Assembly: GCA_008932965.1 (NCBI GenBank)
Contig: WBXG01000056.1
Span: 1-11,928, forward strand
Reading direction: 5' to 3'
DNA from: Verrucomicrobiota bacterium
GTDB taxonomy: Bacteria > Verrucomicrobiota > Verrucomicrobiia > Chthoniobacterales > UBA6821
Length of the DNA: 11,928 bases
The stretch's first letter is position 1, and each line of letters begins with the position of its first letter. The notes below the pieces were generated by a model. The model did no database searches. It was not told where the DNA came from and saw nothing but the letters and a program-made list of their open reading frames with translations. The position numbers were made by a program, and so were the translations under genes. Of this stretch, positions 1 through 11,928 are shown piece by piece.

Positions 1-120
1 GGATTGCGACGACGGCTGTATGTTTCATACTGCCCGAGGAGCAATTCGAGACTGACGCAGTATCCATCAGGTGTTCGCAAGCCGCAGCAGAATCAGTATG
101 AAATATTCGGATTAACTCCA
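1..120 (-). repeat. Partial copy (cut by window start) of a structured repeat element, inverted relative to the copy at 11758-11928
   Basis: The reverse complement of 1-120 aligns by eye with 11758-11870. Shared blocks are tccgaatatttcatactgat / tccagatatttcatactgat, gatggatactgcgtcag / gatggatgctgcgttag, and gggcagtatga-aacatacagcc / gggcagtatgtacacatacagcc. There is an internal hairpin at 14-34 (ggctgtatg ttt catactgcc). Confidence 0.7.
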
Positions 121-124
121 ATAT

Positions 125-445
125 TTAGCCTGCGACAGGATTGAGAGTCACCTCTCCTAGCAAAGAAAATCCGTAACTAAGGAGTTTAGCTTCAATTTTT
201 TTACTCGTGCACACAAAAAGAAGTCTCACGTTGGAGTCCAGTAATTGTTGCAGTGAAGAGAGGAGGGCTTGCCATATTTGACGAGAGATCTCTTTTTCAC
301 CAATAAAACAAAGAGAACATTGCTTCAGTAATTCCTTGTTCATAATAGCATCAATTTTTAAAAACCCGATGAGATCTTCTGATGCATCGCTATTAAGGGA
401 CCATGTAATTTTCAGTTCACGATCTAATTGCTGCAGTGTTAGCAT
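125..445 (-). CDS. Hypothetical 106-aa protein. The C-terminal half weakly resembles a GNAT acetyltransferase motif-B region (...VRLLFVCTSKKIEAKLLSYGFSLLGE)
   Basis: Only long ORF in this interval, divergent from the main array. It is too short for a full GNAT domain and lacks a glycine-rich motif A, so the product is not assigned. Confidence 0.45.
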   Translation of the reverse strand: MLTLQQLDRELKITWSLNSDASEDLIGFLKIDAIMNKELLKQCSLCFIGEKEISRQIWQALLSSLQQLLDSNVRLLFVCTSKKIEAKLLSYGFSLLGEVTLNPVAG

Positions 446-523
446 GGATATTTGTTAACATAGAGGACACCTCAAAGTGAACCATTTTAGAAAAAGAATT
501 TTCAATTTTACTTTTTTCAATGA

Positions 524-551
524 TAGACAAGAGATGTTTCGCCGATAGAAT
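524..551 (+). promoter_or_regulatory. Candidate sigma70-like promoter TAGACA-N16-TAGAAT for the 619-3819 operon
   Basis: tagaca at 524-529, a 16-nt spacer, then tagaat at 546-551, about 68 nt upstream of the ATG at 619 in a divergent intergenic region. Pattern match only. Confidence 0.25.
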
Positions 552-618
552 TTCGATTCCTCAATTAAAATTTATCACCTATGAATTGTGATTTCTTACT
601 TCATGCTATTTATTTGAA

Positions 619-1506
619 ATGAAAATTCTTCTCACGCTTGATATCCATGAGCCATACTCACCGGAGCGTGCTAAATCGGAAAATTTGTTGCGACTTATTT
701 GGGATCAATTGCAAGTGACCGGTATGGTGATAGAAACTTTTCTTTCATCCCCACCCTCACTCCAACTTAACACATGGCCGATGTACGCCTCTTCGATGGA
801 AAAATATTTCCATGGCACACCATCTCCCTTATCCAGCTATGACTTGATCATTGGCATTAATCTTCCCTCAGGAGCAGAAGCGCTTTTCAATTCTTTAAAA
901 ATAAAGACCCTGATTCTTCGATCCATTCCATGCGCTCCCATGGCACGTGCTGTTTTGTGCCGTGCTAACTTTCCCATTGATGAAGAATTTTTGATCTCAT
1001 TACCTAACTATAAAATGTTGTATCTTCAAAATTTTGGGCACAAATGCCACTCTTCTCAAGACCGAATATGGTGGTTACCCAATCATTTTCTAGTCAACCA
1101 AGGAAAAAAAGATGCAACCATTTTATTTCTTGGAACAAGCATGTTTCAAGCGGAGAGGATGCGCAGCGGATCGATTATTAATCTATCCACGTATCATGAT
1201 GCGATCATGGAACTTTTAAAAGCGTGCCCCCATTTTTATTATTGCTCTCCTCTACCTATGGATCACTCCGAGCTTCGCTTCATGAAGAACTTGGGGGCGA
1301 CGTGCCCTACTTTTTCTATTGCTGAATTATTCGCGCGAGATGAATTTGATTTTTTCGTTTCACTCGATTCTGCCTATGTTCCAGTAGCAAAAGCTTTTGG
1401 TAGAAGAATCACAATCCTTGGAACTCAACCCACCTGGTCAACAATCCAAGTAAGGAAATTTTGTAGTAATGAATTCATTTCTCATATTCTTCAAACAAAT
1501 TTCTAA
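619..1506 (+). CDS. Hypothetical 295-aa protein, first gene of a 3-gene putative modification operon. Possibly a two-lobed Rossmann-like (GT-B-like) enzyme, not assignable
   Basis: Long ORF whose stop lies 5 nt before the next start. The N-terminal MKILLTLD and the later ATILFLGTS...YHDAIMELLKACP segments look like beta-alpha nucleotide-binding starts. No motif I can name with confidence. Confidence 0.65.
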   Translation: MKILLTLDIHEPYSPERAKSENLLRLIWDQLQVTGMVIETFLSSPPSLQLNTWPMYASSMEKYFHGTPSPLSSYDLIIGINLPSGAEALFNSLKIKTLILRSIPCAPMARAVLCRANFPIDEEFLISLPNYKMLYLQNFGHKCHSSQDRIWWLPNHFLVNQGKKDATILFLGTSMFQAERMRSGSIINLSTYHDAIMELLKACPHFYYCSPLPMDHSELRFMKNLGATCPTFSIAELFARDEFDFFVSLDSAYVPVAKAFGRRITILGTQPTWSTIQVRKFCSNEFISHILQTNF

Positions 1507-1511
1507 CTTCC

Positions 1512-3173
1512 ATGAGCAAGAACACAGATCCATTGAATATTACAAATCTTCGGAGTGATTGGAGGAAACTCAGAGAGACTGCTGCTGAGCAACTTATTCA
1601 AACACGAGCACTCCTTCGCAAGCTTGATTCCACTCCTGGAACTAGCTCCTCTGCAAAAAAAGAAATCGAATCACTAGCCAATCAGCTCACAGGAATTTGC
1701 AACCAAATTGATGCTCAGTTTTTGGTGGTACAAAACGCCATGCAAGAAAGTGATAAAGAGACCTTCGAACATCAAGTAGAAATTCTTATTCAGAAATTTC
1801 AAGGTTGGTACACATTCCTTAATATTGGCTCTATTGAGAGAAAAGACTTTATTTCTCTGTGGCTTCAGGCTTGGGGAGTTTCTCAAGAAAACAAAAACCC
1901 AGAGATGGCAAATTATCTTGGTTTGTCCCCAAAAAATTTTGCTGCCTGTCAAGCATGGGAAAAGGCTTTACTTTTTCCAAGAAGAGCAAGCTCTATATTA
2001 GAGGTCGGGTCTGGATTTGGGATTAATGCGATACGTCTTTCTTGCATGGCTCGTGTAGGAACCATCGAAAAAAAAGAGAAGGTGTTTCAATTCTCTAGAA
2101 ATATTGAGAAAATTTCTCCTATTTATGGCCGCACTCCCCCTATTTCTTTCAGTCATTGCGATTTTGAATTAAAAAGTGCATCAACGATACCAACTGATCT
2201 CTATGATGCCATTTGGTTTCATTCAAGTATTTGGAAACAGTGGATTGAACAAGATGGTCCAGGCTTAATTTCTGCTATCTCTGAACTAGCCAGAAGAGCT
2301 CATTTTTTGCTTTTTACTAGCAATGATGAAAAATTATTGAGAGAAGACCTCCTCTCTCCCCTCTACGAGATAGAGTCTATTGGATCAAACAATCAAGATG
2401 TTCAAAAAAAAATTTATTTTATCGCCCAACGGCGTTATGTGGATGTTGCTGGAAAGTTTTTTCCCTGCTCGGACATGCGTATTCATGATCCCACATGTCA
2501 AGGCTTTGAAACGCTTAACTATAAGGCAGCTTTTTTGCCATGGAATAAACCCTCTATTAAATTAAATACAAAACGCTATATTGTGGGTAAAAACCAAGTC
2601 CTACGTACTTTTTTAAAACGGACCCAGGATGCTAATCCTAGTTTTATTCATCACCGCGAAACCCAAATTTGGCCCTCTCTGTACGAATTAGCTCCTGAGT
2701 TTCCTAAAATAGTTGGACATTTTGAGGATGATATTGGATATCACCTCCTCCTAGAACTCAATGGCTCTTCGGCTCAGCTTCCCATGTTTCCTTTAAATAT
2801 GGACACGCAACATATTATTTTATGTTCTGCAATACGAATCCTCAGTGCCCTTCGAAAAAAAAATCTCCACCTCAATTTTTTACGACTAGGTAATTTTGCT
2901 CTATCGGGCAGTTTTGCAAGTCTTTTAGCAGGTGAATTCATTGGGTATGATGAAATTGAAGAGCCTCTAGATGCCCTTTTGTGGCTTCTTCGAGACCTGA
3001 GTGCTGATATTATTTATTGGCACGATTCACCAATTGAGTCTTTTCGATCTGAACTTGTCGACCAACTTGCTGAAGAGTACAAGATCATTGCTAATTTGGC
3101 ACTCCGTTCTAAAAATATTGATCAATTTTTAGCTGACCCGCTCGTTCAACATAGATTTTTAAACCCATTGTAA
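1512..3173 (+). CDS. 553-aa fusion protein with a class I SAM-dependent methyltransferase domain (central) and a C-terminal kinase-fold-like domain with degenerate catalytic motifs
   Basis: Methyltransferase motif I is ILEVGSGFGINAIRL (E-x-G-x-G-x-G), followed by an acidic beta-2 end (GTIEKKE) and DAIWFHSS. The C-terminal ~220 aa show a kinase-like layout: VLRTFLKR...HRETQIW...HLLLELNG...NLHLNFLRLGNFAL...AGEF. The catalytic Asp position is Asn and the spacing is off by one. Confidence 0.7.
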   Translation: MSKNTDPLNITNLRSDWRKLRETAAEQLIQTRALLRKLDSTPGTSSSAKKEIESLANQLTGICNQIDAQFLVVQNAMQESDKETFEHQVEILIQKFQGWYTFLNIGSIERKDFISLWLQAWGVSQENKNPEMANYLGLSPKNFAACQAWEKALLFPRRASSILEVGSGFGINAIRLSCMARVGTIEKKEKVFQFSRNIEKISPIYGRTPPISFSHCDFELKSASTIPTDLYDAIWFHSSIWKQWIEQDGPGLISAISELARRAHFLLFTSNDEKLLREDLLSPLYEIESIGSNNQDVQKKIYFIAQRRYVDVAGKFFPCSDMRIHDPTCQGFETLNYKAAFLPWNKPSIKLNTKRYIVGKNQVLRTFLKRTQDANPSFIHHRETQIWPSLYELAPEFPKIVGHFEDDIGYHLLLELNGSSAQLPMFPLNMDTQHIILCSAIRILSALRKKNLHLNFLRLGNFALSGSFASLLAGEFIGYDEIEEPLDALLWLLRDLSADIIYWHDSPIESFRSELVDQLAEEYKIIANLALRSKNIDQFLADPLVQHRFLNPL

Positions 3174-3207
3174 TGGCGCTCTATAAAAATCATTACGATC
3201 ACTAAAA

Positions 3208-3819
3208 ATGAAGACCGTTGTTTTAACTGCTTGGACCGAAAACATGCACAGCATTGTGGAGATCACCTCACCCACTAAAATTGAATATGCGCGTAAACAC
3301 GGTTATGAGTTCAGAGACCATATTTTTAATGAAAAAACCGATGAACATCCTGCCTGGGGAAAGCTTGCTCTTCTACTTGATGTATTGCCCGCAGTGGATC
3401 GTTTGCTTTGGATTGATGCCGATGCTTTCATCACTAACCCAGAAATTTCCCTAGAGAACATTCCACACATTGACGGTCTTACTGCTTCCAGAGATTGGGG
3501 TATTGATGCTTCCCTGCTCGATTTTTCCTCTGCAGGAATGATCTTAACTCCAAAAGCATTACCCCTCGTGGAGGCTGCATCCCGAAAAACACATTGGGCG
3601 AATTGCCCTCTCTGGGACCAAAATGGACTACGTGAAGCTGCTCGTGAGTTTAGGAATTTACTACATATTCTCCCTCGAAGAGCCCTTAATGCTGTTCCCC
3701 AGGAGCTTCATCCCTTCGCAGTAGAGCCGTGGCAGGAGGGAGATTTTCTTTGCCATCTTACTTGTAAAACCAACGAAGTAAGAAAAAAATTCCTCGACAA
3801 TTTTTTTTCACAACCATAA
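3208..3819 (+). CDS. Soluble 203-aa glycosyltransferase of the GMA12/MNN10 (CAZy GT34-like, nucleotide-diphospho-sugar transferase) type
   Basis: Family-typical string ...KIEYARKHGYEF...HPAWGKLALLLDVLPAVDRLLWIDADAFITNPEISLENI... This matches the N-x-x-YA-x-x-HGY, P-x-W-x-K and W-x-D-x-DA-x-I-x-N (DxD) layout of the GT34 family. No N-terminal membrane anchor. Confidence 0.75.
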   Translation: MKTVVLTAWTENMHSIVEITSPTKIEYARKHGYEFRDHIFNEKTDEHPAWGKLALLLDVLPAVDRLLWIDADAFITNPEISLENIPHIDGLTASRDWGIDASLLDFSSAGMILTPKALPLVEAASRKTHWANCPLWDQNGLREAAREFRNLLHILPRRALNAVPQELHPFAVEPWQEGDFLCHLTCKTNEVRKKFLDNFFSQP

Positions 3820-3912
3820 TTTAAGTGCACTTTAGATGTAGTCGTATTTTAAAACCAACTGTTACAAAACCAAACATCATGCTGATTCGAGGCTGATTTT
3901 ACCTTATTTATT

Positions 3913-4254
3913 ATGGCATCCTTACCTACCAATCCGGAATTCTACAACCCGGCTACCTCATGGAGTCTGATGACGAATAATTCTACGAACAATCCTCTTT
4001 ATACTGCAGGCCAGATTTCTCCAGTCGCAACCTATGGATTTAACCTTAATTTTATTGGAGCCGCTCTTTTCCCTCAAATTCAATCGACGTTCACTGGACT
4101 TCAAGCCTCGTTATTAAATATTGATGCCAGCAATCCTGCTGCTCTCTTACAAGTGCAGCTCCTCATGAGTGAGTATGAAAATGCGGTCCAATCTACCTCA
4201 GCCATGTATGCATCATGGGAAACGCTCTTAAAAGCGATTATTCAAAATATTTAA
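3913..4254 (+). CDS. sctF: T3SS needle filament subunit (SctF; YscF/PrgI/MxiH/CdsF family) with an unusually long N-terminal extension (113 aa)
   Basis: The C-terminus DASNPAALLQVQLLMSEYENAVQSTSAMYASWETLLKAIIQNI aligns by eye with PrgI/MxiH ...PS(D/N)P(A/Q)LLA(A/E)YQSKLSEY(N/T)LYRNAQSNTVKV(F/I)KD(I/V)DAAIIQNFR. No signal peptide. Followed by a TPR-like chaperone gene, as in yscF-yscG. Confidence 0.8.
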   Translation: MASLPTNPEFYNPATSWSLMTNNSTNNPLYTAGQISPVATYGFNLNFIGAALFPQIQSTFTGLQASLLNIDASNPAALLQVQLLMSEYENAVQSTSAMYASWETLLKAIIQNI

Positions 4255-4306
4255 GGTTTCATTAATCCAACAAAAACCATGAAAGAGACATTCTGAGGAT
4301 ATTTTT

Positions 4307-4750
4307 ATGAGCACTCACAATTCTCACAAAAAATCCGATAAAACAGATGAAAATCACGTGGATCAACCAGTAGGTTTGTTGACCAAAAGTGATCGACAGA
4401 TGTTCATGGAACTTGGCTTTACTGCTTCGTCCAACTTTCTCCCATGGGAAGGACATGCTCTCTTTAGTCAGCTCATGCTTGCTGAACCAGAGGAAGCATA
4501 TCCTCGCCTCGGTCTTGCCTATTGTAAAATCATGGGAGGACAATTTGAGGATGCTCACAACCTTTTAAAAAACAAGATAGTACTTTCCTCAAAACTCAAG
4601 GATTATGGAAATGCTTTACGCGGGTTGGCATTTCACTTAGAAAAAAAGCCTCAAGAGCTTGATGAACTTTTTAATAGTAATAAAAACTCTCTCCAGGAAA
4701 ATAGTACTGCCTACGGTTTCTTTCAAATATTATTAACGTCACTACCATGA
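4307..4750 (+). CDS. TPR-like needle-subunit chaperone candidate (YscG/PscG/CdsG position), 147 aa
   Basis: Lies immediately downstream of the needle gene. GAGGA Shine-Dalgarno at 4295-4299, 7 nt before the ATG. Helical-repeat-like segments (EEAYPRLGLAYCKIMGGQFEDAHNLLKN, YGNALRGLAFHLEKK). The assignment rests mainly on synteny. Confidence 0.55.
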   Translation: MSTHNSHKKSDKTDENHVDQPVGLLTKSDRQMFMELGFTASSNFLPWEGHALFSQLMLAEPEEAYPRLGLAYCKIMGGQFEDAHNLLKNKIVLSSKLKDYGNALRGLAFHLEKKPQELDELFNSNKNSLQENSTAYGFFQILLTSLP

Positions 4751-5055
4751 GCATTCCATCTTCAAACCATCCTAATTCTATCCGCCAAACTCCTACATCG
4801 ACGCAAGGGATCACCCCCTACTCTTCTGCATCTCACGTATCGAAGGCTCATCAAGAAGAGTTTGAAAAATCACTCGATGAGCCTTTAGAAACAGAAAAAA
4901 AGAGTGGGTGGAATGAAGCTAATCAAAAACAATTGTCTCTATCAATGTTCCAACTTGAACACGCTCATTCGATGAATCATACTCAGAAGATGAAAGAGAT
5001 TTATGATGGAATGAGTGATTCTGGTAAATCTAAATCGAATCATCGGCATAGTTAG
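4747..5055 (+). CDS. Hypothetical hydrophilic 102-aa protein in the yscH (YopR) position. Possible secreted early substrate or needle co-chaperone
   Basis: The start overlaps the upstream stop (ATGA at 4747-4750), which indicates translational coupling. The N-terminus is polar and S/T/P-rich, with no hydrophobic segments. Confidence 0.55.
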   Translation: MSIPSSNHPNSIRQTPTSTQGITPYSSASHVSKAHQEEFEKSLDEPLETEKKSGWNEANQKQLSLSMFQLEHAHSMNHTQKMKEIYDGMSDSGKSKSNHRHS

Positions 5056-5078
5056 GTTCCATTTCATCTCTAAAAACC

Positions 5079-5618
5079 ATGTCTGCTTTATCACTAGGAA
5101 CCTCTTTGCCTGCAGTCGATCCCCATGCTTCTGTGGCAAAGATGTCTAGCATTCATGATTCACCTGATATTGATTGCACAGATCATACAGCAGCTCAGAA
5201 TGTGAATGCCACTTCTGAAAATCAAAGACTTACTGATGACGTAGAGGCTTTTTACAGTGTGGGAAATAACAGATTAGGCATCGGTTCTCCACCAACGACT
5301 GTAAACATTCAACAAGAGCAAAGTCTTCATCATTCAGATACTTCTTATGCGTCTCACGAAAATCGGGGATCAGGTGCTATGCCTAGTGACGCCGGTGGCC
5401 TTCAATCAGAAAAAAATGAAGGTAACTACACTAATTTTTCTAACCTTTTTACGGAGTCTGGTAATTTTCTTCAAAAACAAGGGGGACCAAGCGATCCACT
5501 AGCCATGTTTAAACTCCAAGCACAAATGGTAGAAGTGACACTCAATTGGAGCCTGTATGGGCAAATGGCTTCGAAAGCAGTTTCTGGAATTCAAAGTTTG
5601 TTTAATAACCAAGTTTAA
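5079..5618 (+). CDS. T3SS inner-rod-like protein (SctI; YscI/PrgJ/MxiI family) candidate with a long disordered N-terminal region, 179 aa
   Basis: The C-terminal ~45 aa, SDPLAMFKLQAQMVEVTLNWSLYGQMASKAVSGIQSLFNNQV, resemble the PrgJ C-terminus DPKELAISQEMISDYNLYVSMVSTLTRKGVGAVETLLRS (DP..Q..M...L....K.V..I..L pattern). Gene order matches F-G-H-I. Confidence 0.5.
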   Translation: MSALSLGTSLPAVDPHASVAKMSSIHDSPDIDCTDHTAAQNVNATSENQRLTDDVEAFYSVGNNRLGIGSPPTTVNIQQEQSLHHSDTSYASHENRGSGAMPSDAGGLQSEKNEGNYTNFSNLFTESGNFLQKQGGPSDPLAMFKLQAQMVEVTLNWSLYGQMASKAVSGIQSLFNNQV

Positions 5619-5657
5619 TAATTAATTTCTAATCTTTTTTCATTGCCGTAGCGATTT

Positions 5658-5966
5658 ATGAAAGAAAAAATTAAATCCTTTATTCTTGAATCGAAGCGTA
5701 GTGCTAATCGTACTCAGGAACTTTTTGCCAGATCATTGTCAATTTGGGAGGAATTAGACGCTATCATAAAATCTACCCCTTATAGTATAGATAATTGGGT
5801 AGAAATCGCAAAAAAGACAGAGGGGGCTAAAGGAATTTTTTTTTCTGCCCACCTGGAAGTTATTAAATCTCATCACCAACTTGCTAAAAAAAGAAAAAAT
5901 TTAGAAAAGCCTCGTGCTTCTCACTTTAATACTATCCCCCCCTCTCGACTTATTAAAAAAGTATAA
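5658..5966 (+). CDS. Hypothetical small helical 102-aa protein with a basic tail, in the lcrG/pcrG-equivalent position. Possible chaperone or regulator of the downstream 397-aa protein
   Basis: ORF ends 6 nt before the next start. Size, predicted helicity and the K/R-rich C-terminus (LAKKRKNLEKPR...RLIKKV) resemble LcrG-type proteins only in general character. No alignable similarity seen. Confidence 0.5.
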   Translation: MKEKIKSFILESKRSANRTQELFARSLSIWEELDAIIKSTPYSIDNWVEIAKKTEGAKGIFFSAHLEVIKSHHQLAKKRKNLEKPRASHFNTIPPSRLIKKV

Positions 5967-5972
5967 TCCCTC

Positions 5973-11757: not shown

Positions 11758-11928
11758 CTAGTCCAGATATTTCATACTGATCTACTACGAAAGCCGGGAA
11801 GTCAGATGGATGCTGCGTTAGACTCCCATTTTGATTTGGGCAGTATGTACACATACAGCCCTGCATCAAAATGCTCGCCTGCCTTACCCCATCAGCCTTC
11901 GCGGCCTCCTCGTCACGATCAGTATGAA
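11758..11928 (+). repeat. Most complete copy of the structured repeat element with terminal inverted repeats (MITE/ERIC/Correia-like or structured ncRNA). It may extend beyond the window end
   Basis: A perfect 12-nt inverted repeat, ttcatactgatc (11771-11782) and gatcagtatgaa (11917-11928), continues imperfectly inward for ~20 nt more. A central hairpin gggcagtatgtacacatacagccc lies at 11838-11861. Homologous copies are at 1-120 (inverted) and 10626-10660 (partial). Confidence 0.8.

Follow-up and report, generated by a model that had tools for sequence, protein, structure and literature searches.

Maf-dependent glycosylation of flagellin takes place in the cytoplasm and precedes export by the flagellar type III secretion system (T3SS) (PMC4065374). 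Among the enzymes of surface polysaccharides, the bifunctional enzyme WbdD, both kinase and methyltransferase, terminates and measures the O9a O-antigen chains of E. coli (PMC3482155). WbbB (glycosyltransferase family GT99) terminates an O-antigen, and KpsC and KrkA build capsule; KrkA, the founder of family GT140, has a QxxxD nucleophile (D193), an essential histidine in a (K/R)xHP motif (H227) and a general base in a YE motif (E102) (PMC12887879). TibC combines an N-terminal barrel (residues 1-97) with an iron finger at Cys339/342/358/370 (PMC4358343). We compared with these systems a cassette of three genes, termed ORF1, ORF2 and ORF3 (ORF, open reading frame), located immediately upstream of the T3SS needle gene sctF in a contig of a Verrucomicrobiota bacterium (WBXG01000056.1, positions 1 to 11,928); this whole stretch of 11,928 nucleotides (nt) is termed the window.

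As judged from sequence comparison and structure modeling, the three genes constitute a cassette that is both rare and conserved; it encodes predicted cytoplasmic proteins with glycan-enzyme folds and is tightly and anciently linked to the T3SS. All three proteins are remote relatives of known fold families, and two of them lack catalytic residues that characterize their families. The arrangement suggests, without proving, that the needle system owns a glycan-modification module of a kind known for flagella and not for injectisomes. The likeness to flagellin glycosylation islands (Maf/Pse) is one of genome organization only: in both, glycan-enzyme genes are clustered with the gene for a T3SS-exported, polymerizing surface protein with Ser/Thr-rich variable regions. 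The present locus differs in having no Maf, Pse or Leg genes and no protein family in common with those islands, and in serving an injectisome rather than a flagellum.

Predicted folds and catalytic residues of the cassette proteins

ORF3 matched the Pfam family PF05637 (Glyco_transf_34) with 39.6 bits (cut-off 23; E 6.5e-10); the match is limited to residues 12-84, the N-terminal 40% of the protein, and to profile positions 20-97 of 238, and no profile match covers the C-terminal 120 residues. A precomputed match to the same family exists for 20 of the 25 ORF3 homologues. The weak PDB matches were without exception GT34 xyloglucan xylosyltransferases, with the alignment running across the DxD motif (DSD in XXT). 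Both the DxD of ORF3 (D70-A-D72 in WIDADAF, nt 3415-3423) and a C-terminal histidine, H183, are invariant in 25 homologues. No hydrophobic segment was detected in ORF3 (maximum KD19 1.44), and no transmembrane (TM) segment in any of the three proteins. The original prediction of a soluble GT34-type enzyme with WIDADAF as its DxD is borne out by a Pfam score above the gathering cut-off and by the invariance of the DxD, and ORF3 is probably an active, small, soluble GT34-like transferase of the GT-A type. It resembles the plant XXT1/2/5 and the GMA12/MNN10 enzymes in its WxDxDA DxD and in the alignment to XXT across it, but has only 203 amino acids (aa), no TM stem and no type II Golgi topology, and is bacterial and T3SS-linked. 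The protein appears to start at its first Rossmann strand (MKTVVLTAW). No sign of horizontal transfer of the ORF3 gene was found using GC content at third codon positions.

ORF1 had no match in Pfam or NCBIfam. Its profile, searched against the PDB, matched KrkA (E 4e-9), and its AlphaFold2 model (pLDDT 84.9), searched with Foldseek, matched KrkA (E 3e-13, TMq 0.6), WbbB (about 2e-5) and KpsC (GT107; about 4e-4). We therefore model ORF1 as a GT-B-derived fold of the retaining beta-Kdo (3-deoxy-D-manno-oct-2-ulosonic acid) transferases, GT140-like, with the modified GT-B architecture of KrkA, WbbB and KpsC/KpsS, in which the S-x-[DS]-S...V and (H)NG(K)-type segments survive in part. The catalytic motifs of these transferases are replaced. 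In a hidden Markov model (HMM) alignment, KrkA Q189xxxD193 is paired with T173-S-M-F-Q177 of ORF1, which puts Gln in place of the nucleophile Asp; Q177 is invariant in the clade, and His stands at this position in the distant orthologues of loci L021 and L031. The Gln of the motif is Thr, Asn or Pro, and the ribose-binding Glu is Val or Ala. KrkA H227-P228 is paired with L212-P213 (in S-P-L212-P213), so that the histidine that binds cytidine monophosphate (CMP) is lost; the homologues have L, F, I, S, Q or P at this position, and SRHP occurs in one sequence only. In the N-terminal domain, Y74 is invariant and D75 nearly so, a pair that may or may not correspond to the YE motif (E102) of KrkA. 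Many invariant polar residues are kept in the C-terminal domain. ORF1 is a stand-alone protein of 295 aa in a T3SS locus, whereas the KrkA/WbbB/KpsC group belongs to capsule or O-antigen polymerases, and it is probably non-catalytic or of altered chemistry.

ORF2 likewise matched no Pfam or NCBIfam family. Its top Foldseek matches were four WbdD entries (including 4AZS and 4AX8; E 1.6e-12) over about 400-450 columns, followed by eukaryote-like protein kinases and small-molecule methyltransferases. The ORF2 profile reaches a protein (P0080) that bears Pfam Pkinase/Kdo and Methyltransf_11 matches, with an hhalign probability of 95.8% (E 7e-9) over 324 columns. These two results agree with the earlier description of ORF2 as a methyltransferase fused to a kinase-like domain; PDB searches with the single sequence and with the profile gave only sub-threshold phosphorylase-kinase matches, sequence similarity to WbdD being undetectable. 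Like WbdD, ORF2 is predicted to be soluble and cytoplasmic, with an S-adenosylmethionine (SAM)-methyltransferase followed by a eukaryote-like kinase fold and a coiled-coil segment. The coiled coil is N-terminal in ORF2, whereas that of WbdD, its ruler and membrane anchor, is C-terminal. The two proteins also differ in context, which is a T3SS locus for ORF2 in all loci and an O-antigen cluster dependent on an ATP-binding cassette (ABC) transporter for WbdD.

Within the clade of the window, the methyltransferase motifs of ORF2 are canonical and conserved (motif I, E164-x-G166-S-G-F-G170; E186; D232). The kinase half is different. In the alignment to P0080, in which the corresponding segments read YHNDIRLWN and IDFD, the HxD Asp is replaced by Phe456, the DFG Asp by Ala and the beta3 Lys by Arg366 (R/H), and the Mg/ATP ligands of WbdD (N356, D369 of the DFG and E274) have no full counterpart. 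The catalytic-loop Asn (N461) is the sole canonical kinase residue kept, and the residues invariant across five distant lineages are structural (N455, R458, E481, E483, W491 and D495). Because the catalytic Lys, Asp and Asp are all replaced, the kinase fold is assigned as a pseudokinase by canonical criteria. Judged by their motifs, only ORF3 and possibly the methyltransferase of ORF2 look like working enzymes. With catalytic residues missing from ORF1 and from the kinase half of ORF2, the cassette is not a simple three-enzyme pathway.

Gene order, distribution and partner transferases

The three families are tiny (25, 22 and 23 clusters), and all clusters are at least 40% identical. Conservation at 40-99% identity in some 20-25 clusters indicates that the three ORFs are real genes and not chance ORFs. 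Every named member comes from metagenome-assembled genomes of Chthoniobacterales/Verrucomicrobia (freshwater, uncultivated), with consecutive locus tags. HMMER, run exhaustively over 1.84 billion representatives, returned only 11 relatives of ORF2 at E<=1e-3, and a metagenome scan with a diverse ORF2 alignment added four loci within the clade and nothing beyond it.

Synteny was assessed in 13 species-level genomes, four further metagenome loci and several strain-level contigs. The order ORF1-ORF2-GT34-sctF, with the small gene up106 divergent in front of it, is kept in 12 of the 13 species-level genomes and in three of the four metagenome loci. It continues with one or two copies of sctF, a tetratricopeptide repeat (TPR) gene and, further on, the genes for a 397-aa protein, an LcrH chaperone, a translocator and a CesT-like chaperone, while sctJ-K-L-N-O-P-Q(-R-S-T) lies upstream on the opposite strand. 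The single exception among contigs of sufficient length is a lineage represented by two independent assemblies (L015/L006 and L028), in which ORF1-ORF2 is kept and the downstream block is inverted; the GT34-like gene is there head-to-head with sctF, 330 nt apart, and 12 kb from ORF1-ORF2. Two distant lineages, L021 (44% GC) and L031 (that of a 47-kb contig, 47% GC), have ORF2 proteins about 21% identical to that of the window. Their order is sctU...sctJ and an up106-like gene, both on the reverse strand, then ORF1-like, ORF2-like and a gene for a GT9-like protein of 376-391 aa; nusG/secE or dnaG/rpoD come immediately after it, and sctF is missing.

The conserved core thus appears to be up106, ORF1 and ORF2 beside the sctJ operon, with an accompanying transferase that varies. 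Since the L021 and L031 lineages keep the ORF1- and ORF2-like genes next to sctJ without sctF, the cassette is, by its gene order, linked to the T3SS as a whole and not to the needle gene. The original prediction had tied the trio to the needle gene: its link to the T3SS is deep and present in all loci, but the anchor is the divergent region on the sctJ side rather than sctF. The opposite outcome that it had envisaged, a cassette beside unrelated genes and never near a T3SS, was not encountered, T3SS genes being neighbors of the cassette in all loci.

Apart from the distant lineages, many Chthoniobacterales genomes have a GT9-like orthologue (44-48% identity) at the distal end of their T3SS locus, and in the nearest sequenced relative of the window the gene lies in a separate locus. 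In both settings it adjoins a second LcrH-type (class II) chaperone gene and a gene for a Pro-repeat protein with 29% Ser/Thr. The GT9-like protein is T3SS-linked in all lineages, adjoining either ORF2 or the LcrH-type chaperone and the protein with about 29% Ser/Thr. It has an extra N-terminal domain of about 75 aa and four invariant cysteines (C-x4-C-x10-C-x9-C) near residues 327-353. In its extra N-terminal domain, a GT-B core with a DSxxxH segment and the four cysteines it is like TibC, but the cysteine spacing differs. Membership in the TibC/AAH (BAHT) family was not confirmed, as PDB sequence searches gave weak RfaF matches only, and we treat the resemblance to the BAHT protein O-heptosyltransferases as a lead. 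Homology between the GT34-like gene and the third-slot gene of L021 was rejected by comparison; the two are not orthologous. The swapping of the transferase while its slot is kept speaks for a T3SS-tied function in adding glycans. A further protein of about 925-1000 aa, with Phosphodiest (alkaline-phosphatase superfamily) and faint sulfotransferase matches, is always encoded next to the GT9-like gene and is a possible further enzyme of glycan or lipid modification with ties to the T3SS locus.

The gaps in the window are 5 nt between ORF1 and ORF2 (1507-1511), 34 nt between ORF2 and ORF3 (3174-3207) and 93 nt between ORF3 and sctF. Tight spacing on one strand up to the needle gene, free of a terminator, had been predicted, and the ORF coordinates and a terminator scan agree with this. 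A terminator between ORF3 and sctF, which would have spoken for separate units, was looked for at 3820-3912 and not found, and RNA folding of the junction was no better than that of shuffled sequences (z = 0.44). Because of this 93-nt gap without terminator or hairpin, the trio and sctF are plausibly co-transcribed in the window. Such co-transcription is not a conserved feature, because the GT34-like gene is head-to-head with sctF in the exception lineage. In relatives the corresponding gap is 83-429 nt. An A/C-rich leader element, TTTTAAAACCAAC (3847-3859), recurs upstream of sctF in L013, L014, L016, L017 and L018. A conserved promoter-like motif, TTGATTTTTTTWAAAA-N2-GAGTAGTCT, is found solely upstream of sctF in one subclade and is absent from the window. 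A search for a regulatory motif common to the upstream regions of ORF1 and sctF yielded none; the promoter-like motif is specific to sctF and to that subclade. The best sigma-70-like match upstream of ORF1 (TAGACA-16-TAGAAT, 10/12) is a consensus match only, and the total of promoter-type consensus matches in the whole window is not above that of shuffled sequences.

Candidate acceptors and neighboring genes

The needle subunit encoded in the window matched the Pfam family T3SS_needle_F over residues 55-113 (E 1.2e-6) with 29.1 bits, slightly below the cut-off of 29.4, and its orthologues in relatives matched this family without qualification. In an alignment of 19 copies (107-113 aa), the helical hairpin of SctF is near-invariant, and an N-terminal extension of about 45 aa is variable and rich in Pro, Asn, Ser and Thr. 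Many relatives carry tandem sctF paralogues (L007 10751-11572; L013, L014, L016, L017, L018, L027 and L030), whose cores are almost identical and which differ mainly in this extension; the window has one copy. Ser+Thr make up 30%, Asn+Gln 17% and Lys+Arg 0.8% of the 397-aa protein, whose center is variable and whose C-terminal helical segment is conserved. We infer that it is a candidate surface filament or tip protein, and that it and the SctF extension are candidate acceptors of a modification. The possibility that it is a needle paralogue was rejected (hhalign probability 14% against SctF). The N-termini of SctF (3913-3960) and of the 397-aa protein (5973-6110) have in common a Pro/Asn/aromatic motif of the [FY][FY]NP type (LPTNPEFYNP in SctF; DPLYNNP...PSYFNPNIY in the 397-aa protein), the overall hhalign comparison not being significant; this motif may serve both proteins as a chaperone, secretion or modification signal.

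We compared the window with the strain-level contigs L023, L024 and L025. The flanks, 1-6123 and the part from 10157 onward to where each alignment ends, have 99.0-99.4% nucleotide identity, and the block between them (6123-10157), comprising the center of the 397-aa protein, the LcrH chaperone and the translocator, is about 85-90% identical or unalignable. At the amino acid level, identity is 98.5-99.7% for ORF1, ORF2 and the GT34-like transferase, 95.6-100% for SctF, 84.6% for the LcrH chaperone, 71% for the 397-aa protein and 64-89% for the translocator (lengths 669-726 aa). The hypervariable block looks like the outcome of recombinational replacement or of diversifying selection on exposed T3SS parts, and the variation of the 397-aa protein is as expected for an exposed, diversifying surface component. 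Within the translocator gene, a 171-nt tandem duplication (1.9 copies, 93% match) encodes a repeated Ser/Pro/Ala-rich segment at 8304-8629, and a 21-nt repeat (2.7 copies) is present at 9321-9376; the copy region is not the same in all strains.

Downstream of sctF and on the same strand are the genes for a CdsG-like TPR protein, an SctI-like protein and the 397-aa protein, and then those for a class II chaperone of the LcrH/SycD type (TIGR02552, E 5e-35), for a translocator-like protein of 714 aa in which a segment near residue 487 is strongly hydrophobic, and for a CesT-like chaperone, followed by tRNA-Leu (Table 1). A basic protein of 102 aa is encoded upstream of the 397-aa protein. The tRNA-Leu(AAG) gene and a gene for a rhomboid-like membrane protein close the T3SS block in this strain; in other species a block of chaperone, Ser/Thr-rich protein and GT9-like genes takes the place of this end. 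The last 163 nt of the window (11766-11928) are 97% identical, in reverse orientation, to a segment lying between sctP and sctO in this T3SS locus (L023 3846-4008). A 64-aa ORF is called in that stretch of L023, and another 64-aa ORF follows the rhomboid gene in L025; from these comparisons the 163-nt repeat is taken as a duplicated small gene or a repeat flanking the island. On the other side of the cassette, up106 is the immediate upstream neighbor of ORF1 and points away from it in every locus, that of the distant L021 included. It has no Pfam match; two of nine homologues weakly match STAS (best E 0.026), a PDB profile search was uninformative, and to the eye the protein is STAS-like.

Table 1. 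Coordinates of features in the window and, where a locus is named, in related loci
Feature	Positions	Strand	Length	Remark
up106, divergent neighbor of ORF1	125-445	-	106 aa	possibly STAS-like
Best sigma-70-like promoter match upstream of ORF1	524-551	+		consensus match only
ORF1	619-1506	+	295 aa	
ORF2	1512-3173	+	553 aa	
ORF2, N-terminal helical hairpin/coiled coil	1539-1823	+	aa 10-104	predicted, AlphaFold2 model
ORF2, class I SAM-methyltransferase fold	1929-2447	+	aa ~140-312	predicted, AlphaFold2 model
ORF2, bilobal protein-kinase fold	2454-3170	+	aa ~315-553	predicted, AlphaFold2 model
ORF3 (GT34-like)	3208-3819	+	203 aa	
Intergenic region between ORF3 and sctF	3820-3912	+		no terminator-like site, no stable hairpin; holds TTTTAAAACCAAC
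sctF, needle subunit	3913-4254	+	113 aa	Pfam T3SS_needle_F
397-aa protein	5973-7166	+	397 aa	composition, alignment; no family match (Pfam, NCBIfam)
tRNA-Leu(AAG)	10750-10830			
Rhomboid-like membrane protein	10924-11715	-		
GT9-like gene (other loci)	L003 19243-20379 (-); L006 847-1977; L021 9746-10921; L031 2543-3673; L033 4627-5760		376-391 aa	
Phosphodiest-type protein (other loci)	L003 20462-end; L006 1-551; L033 1553-4552			

Readings of the cassette and their significance

The reading that we favor is a T3SS-linked cassette for cytoplasmic glycosylation and methylation of exported, Ser/Thr-rich needle or filament proteins; we put it forward tentatively, as possible and somewhat short of probable. 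In the cytoplasm, ahead of export, the active transferase or transferases would glycosylate surface-exposed T3SS substrates at Ser/Thr, the best candidates being the variable SctF extension and the hypervariable, Ser/Thr-rich 397-aa protein. The methyltransferase of ORF2 would cap or methylate the glycan, and the degenerate ORF1 and ORF2 kinase domains would act as glycan- or substrate-binding adaptors coupling modification to the export apparatus. We count in favor of this reading that the GT34-like gene still adjoins sctF after the rearrangement in the exception lineage, and that the GT9-like gene stays beside a class II T3SS chaperone and a protein with 29% Ser/Thr even when it is unlinked. 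The trio is also free of TM segments, and the candidate acceptors are Ser/Thr-rich, nearly devoid of Lys/Arg and variable, with hypervariability in the 397-aa protein.

Several observations weigh against it. The acceptors of the characterized relatives of ORF1 and ORF2 (KrkA, WbbB, KpsC and WbdD) are lipid-linked or polysaccharides and not proteins (PMC12887879, PMC3482155), and the same holds for the characterized plant and fungal GT34 enzymes and for the heptosyltransferases of lipopolysaccharide (LPS). The ancestral role of ORF1 and ORF2 may not have been enzymatic, given the lost catalytic residues and a methyltransferase motif I that is degenerate in the distant lineages. The adjacency of cassette and sctF appears specific to the Chthoniobacterales clade and not ancestral, and sctF probably has an independent promoter in the subclade with the promoter-like motif. 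The models of ORF1 and ORF2 were built on shallow alignments of 21 sequences, and in that of ORF2 (pLDDT 73.6) the methyltransferase region has a pLDDT of only 50-70. The original prediction had also pointed to Ser/Thr/Asn-rich exposed parts, with NNST in the needle extension and eight sequons in the 397-aa protein. The NNST and the eight N-x-S/T sites are present, but the sequons are not enriched (eight observed against a mean of 11.2 in composition-preserving shuffles). The sequon argument fails, because the count is below the expectation from composition and because N-sequons are in any case irrelevant to a cytoplasmic GT-A enzyme.

The strongest rival, which we consider unlikely, is a T3SS-co-regulated remodeling of envelope glycans, in which a lipid-linked polysaccharide (O-antigen, capsule or LPS core) would be capped at the inner membrane face; a terminal sugar and a methyl cap would stop chain growth, and the shorter or altered surface glycan would let the needle reach its target. 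This would fit the roles of WbdD and WbbB as chain terminators and of KpsC and KrkA in capsule synthesis, and also the LPS-core heptosyltransferases as relatives of the GT9-like protein. In Shigella, moreover, glucosylation of the O-antigen shortens LPS and improves T3SS function. However, chain terminators are normally encoded within the polysaccharide cluster, and an ABC transporter, a polymerase, a polyprenol-phosphate transferase or other O-antigen or capsule genes are present in none of the loci. Neither the Kdo-transferase nucleophile nor the CMP-binding His is present in ORF1, and ORF2 appears to lack both the kinase activity that WbdD needs to make its methylated phosphate and a C-terminal, membrane-anchoring coiled coil of the WbdD type.

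The same losses of catalytic residues in ORF1 and in the kinase half of ORF2, together with the degenerate motif I, would be expected if both were pseudoenzyme accessory proteins of the T3SS, acting with up106 in assembly, sorting or regulation, the transferases being secondary and functionally separate. ORF1 and ORF2 are strongly conserved and fixed beside sctJ with up106 in all lineages, and the third gene is non-orthologous between lineages. Against this account, which we regard as quite unlikely, a transferase gene always follows ORF2, lies in the same T3SS locus or stands beside T3SS chaperone/substrate pairs, which speaks for a joint function in glycan handling; the SAM motifs are canonical and invariant in the clade of the window; and the C-terminal domain of ORF1 keeps its many invariant polar residues. 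It had further been proposed that the proteins are translocated effectors acting on host targets. Such effectors would glycosylate, methylate or bind those targets in the manner of NleB/SseK, Legionella Lgt/SetA and effector kinases. The GT34 and protein-kinase folds are typical of eukaryotes, effector genes can sit within T3SS loci, and residues 1-9 of ORF2 are predicted to be disordered. Yet the beta1 strand of the Rossmann fold of ORF1 begins at residue 2 (pLDDT 88), and apparently that of ORF3 likewise at its start, which leaves no room for a disordered secretion signal; position and order in a structural operon are fixed across deep divergence and in all genomes; and the trio is 99% identical between strains in which exposed proteins fall to 71%. 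No dedicated chaperone gene is adjacent, and PDB searches gave no similarity to known glycosyltransferase or kinase effectors. The effector proposal is accordingly weak, and we consider it highly improbable.

A stronger form of the preferred reading, protein modification by the cassette, is that of a glycosylation/methylation system dedicated to an injectisome, the first such, which decorates the SctF extension and/or the Ser/Thr-rich protein before export. An active GT34-like or GT9-like transferase would work with adaptors derived from WbdD and from Kdo transferases and would produce a variable glycan coat similar to that of glycosylated flagella. We regard this form as doubtful. The literature searched, which left out most subscription journals, yielded no account of glycosylated injectisome needles or of a T3SS in Chthoniobacterales; within the same limits no such cassette is described, in line with the earlier statement that an equivalent injectisome module is undescribed.

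Needles, tips and translocators rank among the main structures at which innate host recognition and vaccine design are aimed, and to our knowledge those of injectisomes are treated as unmodified proteins. Glycosylation of the needle or filament, if demonstrated, would be the first for injectisomes. If the target is instead an envelope glycan, a glycan-capping module encoded with the T3SS would still be a new accessory function of injectisomes. The cassette would in addition be a testable case of a protein-secretion machine that re-uses, in part as pseudoenzymes, the folds of terminators of O-antigen and capsule (WbdD, Kdo transferases), and it draws attention to a little-known, apparently host- or prey-associated freshwater lineage of Verrucomicrobia with a complete T3SS. 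A modification cassette hard-wired into the T3SS locus would extend the principle of flagellin glycosylation to injectisomes.

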